DNA of 26,705 bases from a virus. Taxonomy: Duplodnaviria; Heunggongvirae; Uroviricota; Caudoviricetes. The position numbers and the translations under genes were made by a program. The DNA is taken from the IMG/VR virus record IMGVR_UViG_2872185964_000003; one strand, 5' to 3'. The number at the start of each line of letters is the position of its first letter. Positions within the stretch are counted from its first letter, which is position 1. Below, in pieces: positions 331 to 1,923 of the stretch. The notes under the pieces were generated by a model. The model did not search any database, was not told the origin of the DNA, and saw only the letters and a program-made list of their open reading frames with translations.

Positions 331-400
331 TTAATTCTGAGGTAAGGGCAAACTCATCTGATTGTTTCCTCTGTGTGAAGTTGGCAGTTCATGCCACGGG
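331..400 (-). pseudogene. ogr: 3' fragment of ogr-like late activator gene, separated from its 5' part by IS2
   Basis: With IS2 and one target-repeat copy removed, the reading frame from 1923 continues ...EGIP-WHELPTSHRGNNQMSLPLPQN to a TAA at 333..331. Confidence 0.55.
396..400. repeat. IS2 target site duplication ACGGG (left copy)
   Basis: ACGGG immediately precedes the IS2 terminus at 401 and recurs at 1728-1732. Confidence 0.85.
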
Positions 401-491
401 TAGACTGGCCCCCTGAATCTCCAGACAACCAGTATCACTTAAATAAGTGATAGTCTTAATACTAGTTTTTAGACTAGTCATTGTAGTACAG

Positions 492-853
492 ATGATTGAT
501 GTCTTAGGGCCGGAGAAACGCAGACGGCGTACCACACAGGAAAAGATCGCAATTGTTCAGCAGAGCTTTGAACCGGGGATGACGGTCTCCCTCGTTGCCC
601 GGCAACATGGTGTAGCAGCCAGTTATTTCTCTGGCGTAAGCAATACCAGGAAGGAAGTCTTACTGCTGTGGCCGCCGGAGAACAGGTTGTTCCTGCCTCT
701 GAACTTGCTGCCGCCATGAAGCAGATTAAAGAACTCCAGCGCCTGCTCGGCAAGAAAACGATGGAAAATGAACTCCTCAAAGAAGCCGTTGAATATGGAC
801 GGGCAAAAAAGTGGATAGCGCACGCGCCCTTATTGCCCGGGGATGGGGAGTAA
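492..853 (+). pseudogene. insC: IS2 orfA (InsC-like), frame-disrupted
   Basis: The N-terminus [44 protein letters not shown] is in frame 0 and the C-terminus (Q)[64 protein letters not shown] is in frame 2. The break is at about 621-626, consistent with loss of one CAGT unit. Confidence 0.7.
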
Positions 854-1716
854 GCTTAGTCAGCCGTTGTCTCCGGGTGTCGCGTGCGCAGTTGCACGTC
901 ATTCTCAGACGAACCGATGACTGGATGGATGGCCGCCGCAGTCGTCACACTGATGATACGGATGTGCTTCTCCGTATACACCATGTTATCGGAGAGCTGC
1001 CCACGTATGGTTATCGTCGGGTATGGGCGCTGCTTCGCAGACAGGCAGAACTTGATGGTATGCCTGCGATCAATGCCAAACGTGTTTACCGGATCATGCG
1101 CCAGAATGCGCTGTTGCTTGAGCGAAAACCTGCTGTACCGCCATCGAAACGGGCACATACAGGCAGAGTGGCCGTGAAAGAAAGCAATCAGCGATGGTGC
1201 TCTGACGGGTTCGAGTTCTGCTGTGATAACGGAGAGAGACTGCGTGTCACGTTCGCGCTGGACTGCTGTGATCGTGAGGCACTGCACTGGGCGGTGACTA
1301 CCGGCGGCTTCAACAGTGAAACAGTACAGGACGTCATGCTGGGAGCGGTGGAACGCCGCTTCGGCAACGATCTTCCGTCGTCTCCAGTGGAGTGGCTGAC
1401 GGATAATGGTTCATGCTACCGGGCTAATGAAACACGCCAGTTCGCCCGGATGTTGGGACTTGAACCGAAGAACACGGCGGTGCGGAGTCCGGAGAGTAAC
1501 GGAATAGCAGAGAGCTTCGTGAAAACGATAAAGCGTGACTACATCAGTATCATGCCCAAACCAGACGGGTTAACGGCAGCAAAGAACCTTGCAGAGGCGT
1601 TCGAGCATTATAACGAATGGCATCCGCATAGTGCGCTGGGTTATCGCTCGCCACGGGAATATCTGCGGCAGCGGGCTTGTAATGGGTTAAGTGATAACAG
1701 ATGTCTGGAAATATAG
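811..1716 (+). CDS. insD: IS2 orfB transposase catalytic domain (InsD-like)
   Basis: 301-aa ORF with an integrase-core DDE region (…WCSDGFEF…LDCCDRE…TDNGSCY…) in the -1 frame relative to the orfA C-terminus, the usual IS3-family arrangement. Confidence 0.9.
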
Positions 1717-1727
1717 GGGCAAATCCA

Positions 1728-1732
1728 ACGGG
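1728..1732. repeat. IS2 target site duplication ACGGG (right copy)
   Basis: Identical to 396-400 and immediately abuts the IS2 end. Confidence 0.85.
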
Positions 1733-1923
1733 ATGCCCTCTGATGAGTGAATGGGGGAGGCGTGCTTTGAAGTGAATTTGTGGAAGGCTTCCAGTGTTGA
1801 GAAACATACGCCGCATTCTAGATTGTTACACTGATAATACTTTTGTCTCACGGTGTTTGAATCATTTTCCGGACGACTGGTGCGGATACGGGCAGATGCG
1901 CCACAAAGCGGACAACGGAACAT
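1728..1923 (-). pseudogene. ogr: 5' part of Ogr/Delta-family zinc-finger late-gene activator, interrupted by IS2
   Basis: Translation MFRCPLCGASARIRTSRPENDSNTVRQKYYQCNNLECGVCF... has the C-x2-C-x24-C-x4-C spacing of Ogr-type zinc fingers. AGAGAGG RBS lies upstream of the ATG at 1923. The ORF-track tail beyond 1727 is IS2-derived read-through. Confidence 0.8.

Follow-up and report, generated by a model that had tools for sequence, protein, structure and literature searches.

An IS2 insertion in the ogr-like activator gene of a decaying P88-like prophage in Shigella

The stretch of DNA analysed here, the 26,705-nucleotide virus record IMGVR_UViG_2872185964_000003 (Caudoviricetes; hereafter the window, meaning the whole stretch), carries a copy of the insertion sequence IS2 inside an ogr-like gene, the putative late-gene activator of a P2-type prophage, at positions 331 to 1923 (Table 1). 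The 1327-base-pair (bp) stretch occupied by the element begins with TAGACTGGCCCC and ends with GGGGCAAATCCA. The left junction (window 391-410) reads ATGCCACGGG/TAGACTGGCC and the right junction (window 1721-1740) reads AAATCCA/ACGGGATGCCCTC, the slash marking the IS2 edge in each case. Aligned with the annotated 1331-bp IS2 of Escherichia coli ETEC4068, the stretch matched end to end at 99.4% identity, with 4 mismatches and one 4-bp gap, and the matching copies are annotated as 'IS3-like element IS2 family transposase'. The imperfect terminal inverted repeats of IS2 were located at 410-442 and 1687-1719. An earlier sequence-only reading of this DNA had named the element and its extent and had proposed a perfect 5-bp target duplication; the alignment agrees with the former, and the latter stands because ACGGG is identical on the two sides of the element and single at the empty site described below.

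When the minus-strand segments 1923-1728 and 395-331 were joined via one ACGGG, an open reading frame (ORF) of 86 amino acids (aa) was obtained, and the insertion falls directly after its codon 65 (Pro65), the length and the codon both agreeing with the sequence-only reading. The restored product is an Ogr-like zinc-finger protein, as had been expected from the sequence: it scores 52.3 bits against the Pfam family Ogr_Delta (PF04606; cut-off 26.3) and shares 38% identity with P2 Ogr (E = 9e-15). The insertion lies past the zinc finger, as was also proposed, and leaves the Pfam domain at residues 3-49 untouched; the 78-aa fusion of Ogr with IS-encoded residues still scores 52.7 bits on PF04606. 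Two hallmarks of the family were found, namely four zinc-binding cysteines (CxxC ... CxxxxC), with C4, C7, C32 and C37 invariant in the alignment of homologues, and a gene position at the D or attachment-site end of a P2-type genome. The score against NF007241, the NCBIfam equivalog model for OgrK, was 44.2 bits, below the cut-off of 116. On these profile scores the window's ogr product is placed as a member of the family and not as an OgrK equivalog.

Table 1. Coordinates of the features in the window.
Feature	Position	Strand	Remark
Hok/Gef-family toxin gene, 46 aa	1-141	-	At the prophage's extreme end, downstream of ogr
ogr 3' part, displaced: codons 66-86 and stop (331-333)	331-400	-	Carries the conserved P-x-SH-x-G-x2-Q-x2-L
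Target-site duplication, left copy ACGGG	396-400
IS2 (IS3 family), 1327 bp	401-1727	+	Between two perfect ACGGG copies
Left inverted repeat (IRL) end of IS2	401		TAGACTGG...
IS2 orfA	492-719	+	75 aa from ATG, not 121 aa; HTH_Tnp_1 (Pfam)
A6G programmed -1 frameshift window of IS2	805-811	+
IS2 orfB, 301 aa	811-1716	+	Intact; HTH_21, rve, rve_3 (Pfam)
Ogr::IS2 fusion ORF, 78 aa	1687-1923	-	Ogr residues 1-65 and 13 residues read from the IRR end
Right inverted repeat (IRR) end of IS2	1727		...GCAAATCCA
Target-site duplication, right copy ACGGG	1728-1732
ogr 5' part, codons 1-65	1728-1923	-	Whole C4 zinc finger: C4, C7, C32, C37
Sigma-70-like promoter match upstream of ogr, TTTAAA-17-TAGAAT	1954-1982	-	Consensus match only
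AT-rich cargo gene, 1039 aa when intact	2062-5176	-	Three pieces here; 1-bp homopolymer deletions at ~2593 and ~4866
Tail gene D	5425-6534	-	Nonsense at codon 41; common to Sb227 and another genome locus (L017)
Tube gene FII	7874-8334		Two frameshifts, near codons 65 and 128, common to Sb227
IS1, 768 bp, at deletion junction	8335-9102	-	Joins FII codon 155 to the tail-fibre region
Capsid gene N	17152-18192		Interrupted; 290-aa C-terminal ORF in both the window and Sb227
IS911 fragment abutting parM codon 119	24066-24602	-
IS629/IS1203-like IS3-family element, 1310 bp	24603-25912	-	HTH_Tnp_1, rve (Pfam); abuts int

The uninterrupted allele to be sought in relatives was found by genome comparison. 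The two flanks joined via a single ACGGG (354 bp) are present at 100% identity in the chromosomes of E. coli VG38-53E1, ETEC4088 and GDSC2BY4G, and at 99.2-99.4% in two further genomes. At the empty site the annotation gives an intact gene for an 86-aa 'ogr/Delta-like zinc finger family protein' that is 100% identical to our reconstruction, and in VG38-53E1 the overlap between the window's two flanks is one ACGGG, no more and no less. The existence of an empty site of 100% identity establishes the IS2 insertion as a real transposition event, and the evidence for the duplication goes well beyond the 1-in-1024 chance that two 5-mers match.

The insertion is shared by many Shigella genomes. Exact matches to the 78-aa fusion protein were found in 171 blocks of the public collection, on 169 contigs, and the fusion carries the NCBI name 'MULTISPECIES: ogr/Delta-like zinc finger family protein [Shigella]'. 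Over 7923 bp the window matches CP026872.1 at 100% identity, and the carriers of the fusion include CP000036.1, which we take to be Shigella boydii Sb227 (called Sb227 below). The same prophage lineage, with the IS911 junction on the parM side, occurs in CP001063.1, presumably S. boydii CDC 3083-94, for which the comparison covered the parM side. The host is a Shigella chromosome of S. boydii type. An exact search for the left junction among contigs of a one-genome-per-species set gave no match, Shigella presumably being folded into E. coli there. Since the same junction recurs in many Shigella genomes, the insertion is an old one, fixed in a lineage. That the junction is instead an artefact of an error-prone long-read assembly would agree with the many homopolymer-confined 1-bp deletions that separate the window's genome from every relative examined; but the identical junction and fusion ORF recur in at least 10 complete genomes, which come from different projects and several sequencing technologies and include CP000036.1, and the perfect duplication agrees with the empty site. 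The carrier genomes have effectively refuted this explanation, to which we assign a negligible probability.

The IS2 copy itself departs from an intact element in one respect. The roles of orfA, orfB and the A6G window in IS2 have been described, and the OrfAB product depends on both orfA and A6G (PMC3299598). Like IS2 of E. coli K-12, the copy in the window has imperfect terminal repeats, orfA and orfB with the A6G window, a 5-bp target duplication and 99.4% identity to annotated IS2. Unlike it, it does not have an intact orfA to be joined to orfB via A6G, although both orfB and A6G are present: the orfA frame is broken by a 4-bp deletion, CCAG, at about window position 623, with the remainder continuing in the original frame to 853. 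The element measures 1327 rather than 1331 bp because of this deletion, which is unique to the window's genome; in sister genomes with the same insertion orfA is intact (121 aa, or part of a 409-aa fusion). If the deletion is real, it should abolish both OrfA and the DDE (rve) transposase OrfAB, and the copy would then encode no transposase of its own. The copy is IS2 by descent, and is probably non-autonomous provided that the deletion is not an assembly error; the assembly of the window is rich in homopolymer errors, and the CCAG deletion, although it is no homopolymer change, could be an artefact as well.

The consequence for Ogr was evaluated in an alignment with 14 homologues whose identity runs from 95% to 38%. 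The set covered E. coli, E. albertii, Salmonella, Klebsiella phage 3LV2017 and phage SEN4. In this alignment a variable linker (residues 53-63) is followed by a C-terminal module in which P65, P70, S72, H73 and Q78 never vary, with I64, G75 and L81 close to invariant. The module reads as a subfamily motif, IP-x4-P-x-SH-x-G-x2-Q-x2-L, which homologues of as little as 38% identity still have and P2 Ogr does not. With IS2 in place, 13 IS-encoded codons stand where the final 21 codons of the 86-aa protein were, and the product is stripped of P70, S72, H73, G75, Q78 and L81. As the module is invariant while the linker preceding it varies freely, the lost part appears to be under purifying selection. 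The truncated activator is probably inactive or weakened, and, judged from conservation, we lean towards an impairment of Ogr, at somewhat better than even odds. The sequence-only reading had guessed that late-gene activation was lost because the insertion falls after the zinc finger; the guess is plausible, for another reason than the one given, namely the loss of the conserved module.

Several points weigh against this interpretation. The zinc-finger domain (Pfam residues 3-49) is intact, and the position aligned with Tyr42 of P2 Ogr is retained in the fusion; that residue has reportedly been implicated (King et al. 1992) in contact with RNA polymerase's alpha subunit. A C-terminally truncated P2 Ogr is also reported to be still active (Gebhardt et al., J Bacteriol, 1993). 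Neither P2 Ogr nor some Salmonella homologues of 71-75 aa have the SH-x-G motif. These points bear on the alternative that the insertion is functionally neutral, the 78-aa fusion still activating late promoters and IS2 being a bystander in a prophage that other mutations had killed. In line with such neutrality, P2 Ogr has only 72 aa and aligns with residues 1-66, the short Salmonella proteins and the intact Pfam domain fit equally, and the IS-encoded tail starts with LDLPL, resembling the native MSLPL. Set against it is the conservation pattern itself, with P70, S72, H73 and Q78 invariant and G75 and L81 nearly so in 14 homologues whose linker is free to vary. We regard neutrality as less likely than impairment of the activator.

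The window's Ogr resembles P2 Ogr, PSP3 Pag and OgrK in its CxxC...CxxxxC finger, in its small size and in its position at the D-proximal end of a P2-type genome. It differs from these proteins in carrying the distinct invariant C-terminal motif and in having a cargo gene between ogr and D, and from P2 Ogr also in length (86 aa here, 72 aa in P2). The structure search turned up no solved structure for any Ogr-family protein; its matches were weak and only to C2H2 fingers. Ogr/Delta proteins act on late promoters via a TGT-N12-ACA element, the operator pattern of P2, and RNA polymerase's alpha subunit. This pattern is not enriched here: it occurs 8 times in the window against 6.5 expected, and none of the matches lies in the D/FI or O/P divergent regions. 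Two of the matches, at 5285-5302 and 5381-5398, stand 110-220 bp upstream of the start of the cargo gene; they are probably meaningless, because over the whole window the pattern is no commoner than chance predicts.

The sequence-only reading had further proposed that the insertion locked the prophage in. In P2, Ogr turns on the late structural and lysis operons, and excision needs Int and Cox. The proposal is not supported, because Ogr governs late transcription whereas excision is the task of Int and Cox, and because other disabling lesions are present. These were assessed by comparing the window and Sb227 with the intact copy in VG38-53E1. Beyond the lesions of D, FII and N listed in Table 1, the IS1 junction accounts for the loss of E, E', the tape-measure gene T, U and the invertase gene, all of which are present in Sb227. 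At the IS911/IS629 junction, where the 1310-bp element interrupts or abuts the IS911 fragment, parM codon 119 is joined to int codon 56 with the loss of the replication gene A, cox, the C repressor gene and int codons 1-55; the int DNA that is left is homologous to codons 56-325. In sister strains (loci L033-L039) an intermediate state was found, with IS911 in place of A and with C, cox and int still present. The terminase gene P has a frameshift near codon 210 that is common to several sister strains and is not found in Sb227. Neither the IS1 nor the IS911/IS629 deletion junction of the window occurs in any E. coli complete genome. A supposed truncation of D in VG38-53E1 itself was rejected: D is intact there at its full 369 aa, the short annotation reflecting a start-codon call.

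On this comparison, the stop in D, the frameshifts in FII and the lesion in N, all shared with Sb227, and the frameshift in P, shared with other strains, are judged to be real. Other apparent lesions are not. Relative to VG38-53E1, the window shows extra 1-bp deletions, nearly all in homopolymer runs and mostly of G or C, at about 262, 2593, 4866, 6494, 6579, 7996, 8064, 8253, 12900, 14400, 14636, 15514, 19198, 20850, 21121, 22046 and 26305; those of the first 8 kb are absent from the sister Shigella genomes. They are most likely long-read consensus errors that give false frameshifts. Pseudogenisation was considered for the many frameshifts and rejected for most of them, as the window-specific ones are nearly all 1-bp deletions in homopolymers and none of those compared with sister Shigella genomes was found there. 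Biological meaning should accordingly be read neither into the broken-up cargo gene nor into several apparent frameshifts in V, lysB, P, Q and int.

Could IS2 nevertheless have been the primary disabling event, with late activation lost, the prophage locked in and the other decay following later? The insertion is present in all examined Shigella genomes with the prophage, so it is among the oldest lesions, and Sb227 has it while T, U, P, Q, the tail fibres and the lysis genes are intact. The IS1 deletion is younger, being absent from Sb227, and so is the deletion bounded by IS629, in which C, cox and the start of int went missing and which several sister strains do not have; the motif removed is, in addition, invariant in the subfamily. 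On the other hand, Ogr is dispensable for P2 excision, which requires Int and Cox, the nonsense codon in D, the two frameshifts in FII and the interruption of N are equally shared, and no genome was found with IS2 as the sole lesion. Such a sequence of events is therefore unlikely in our view. IS2 in ogr belongs with the oldest lesions, and those of D, FII and N may have come before or after it. Judging from the gene content, excision, replication and tail building cannot proceed in the window's strain for reasons other than IS2, and IS2 is certainly not what keeps the remnant in place today.

The prophage that received IS2 is, by nucleotide comparison, a P88-like member of Xuanwuvirus (Peduoviridae), as the window is 96-98% identical to Shae_phiSM, P88, P884B11 and 503458 over 52-66% of its length. 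In the window's own genome ihfA and pheST lie past the hok end, and in E. coli VG38-53E1 the same prophage is situated between ihfA and btuC, as a 35-kb copy whose ogr is intact and whose gene set appears complete. From the ihfA side the order is hok, ogr (331-1923), the AT-rich cargo gene (2062-5176), D and the divergent FI-U tail cluster, followed by the genes for tail fibres, baseplate, lysis and head, then the divergent P and Q, the par genes and finally int. The orientation of FI-U opposite to D was considered as a rearrangement and rejected, for it is the native layout of Xuanwuvirus. The window shares with P88-like phages this gene order, the divergence of FI-U from D and 96-98% identity over most late genes, as well as an 86-aa Ogr with 89.5-96.5% identity to those of Shae_phiSM (a Citrobacter phage), 500465-2 and P884B11. 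It differs from them in being about 10 kb shorter, in its four IS elements, in its nonsense and frameshift lesions and in the absence of A, cox, C, T, U and E. The hok toxin gene is conserved in the E. coli and Shigella copies. Rfam detected no Sok-like RNA near hok, its sole match being the IS3-family ALIL pseudoknot at 25461-25577, inside the IS629/IS1203-like element.

The cargo gene between D and ogr has a GC content of 33% and bears the PGAP label 'MFS transporter'; it has no match in Pfam, NCBIfam or PADLOC. An intact copy lies at 1036-4155 of a relative's locus (L005), and the splitting of the gene in the window is probably due to assembly errors. In most Shigella strains the cargo gene is intact while the phage genes decay. 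The slot between ogr and D is a variable cargo hotspot, because hxsDBCA or a YecA-family gene occupies it in other strains.

Independent IS2 insertions were found at the same prophage end in E. coli relatives. In STEC384 (locus 3393-4723) and STEC379, IS2 lies inside ogr, 9 bp from the Shigella site, with the duplication GTTCA, in the same orientation and reading frame as the Shigella insertion and with the same IS-encoded tail. ETEC4068 (locus 3736-5066) and ETEC4075 have IS2 about 100 bp upstream of ogr, with the duplication GGAAA; strain 165 and three others have it inside the cargo gene, and CFIAFB20180511 and TO6 beside hok. In total this amounts to about 5 events in about 10 of roughly 1200 carrier genomes, against a median of 4 IS2-matching places per E. 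coli genome. The pattern suggests a regional preference or selection, with a modest excess over chance. It could be taken to mean that the 3' end of ogr is a preferred IS2 target, or that disruption of ogr is repeatedly selected, so that the Shigella case would be one of convergent silencing, in which P2-type prophages are silenced while the cargo gene and hok are kept. The independent insertions in or near ogr, the cargo gene and hok speak for such convergence, as does the intact cargo gene in most Shigella strains. The events are nevertheless only about 5, in about 10 of roughly 1200 carriers, the background of IS2 copies leaves a modest excess over chance, and no target consensus was identified, which makes convergence doubtful. 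More speculative still, and improbable on present evidence, is that the hok-ogr-cargo end of P88/P2-type prophages is a recurrent IS2 target, or the disruption of ogr selected, in a way that possibly leaves a DNA-binding, non-activating Ogr. If that were true, the truncated DNA-binding Ogr might keep late and lysis genes silent or hinder P2-type phages that superinfect the cell, and the host would meanwhile keep the 1039-aa cargo gene and hok.

The account that we favour, at a probability of roughly 0.9, is the more ordinary one. A copy of IS2 transposed into the 3' part of the ogr-like late activator gene of a P88-like prophage in the chromosome of an S. boydii-type Shigella, making its usual 5-bp duplication, here ACGGG. 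The event left the zinc finger whole and removed the C-terminal motif that is invariant in the subfamily. If the truncated activator is inactive or weakened, the late structural and lysis operons would stay silent; a block to excision is not implied by the insertion. IS2 stands beside other lesions that the carriers share, and deletions associated with IS1, IS911 and IS629 continue to erode the prophage.

Pseudogenisation and prophage decay driven by insertion sequences are well known in Shigella, for example from the Sb227 genome paper of 2005. The present locus is like other such cases in that IS1, IS2, IS911 and IS629 interrupt genes and bound deletions in one place; it does not differ from them in kind and represents one specific, previously unremarked instance. 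Both partners, IS2 and the Ogr/Delta activator of a P88-like prophage, are already known, as is the phenomenon, and the allele is present in public genomes. The importance of the finding beyond annotation is small, and what it shows is ordinary Shigella genome decay. For annotation, what RefSeq lists as an ordinary 78-aa 'ogr/Delta-like zinc finger family protein [Shigella]' is really a fusion truncated by IS2. The ogr::IS2 locus provides a clean, datable marker of a Shigella lineage, with its empty site known, and illustrates the stepwise decay of a prophage driven by insertion sequences. The by-products of the analysis are possibly more useful: the invariant C-terminal motif, which defines a subfamily of Ogr activators, and the large cargo gene, which matched no family, in the variable slot between ogr and D.

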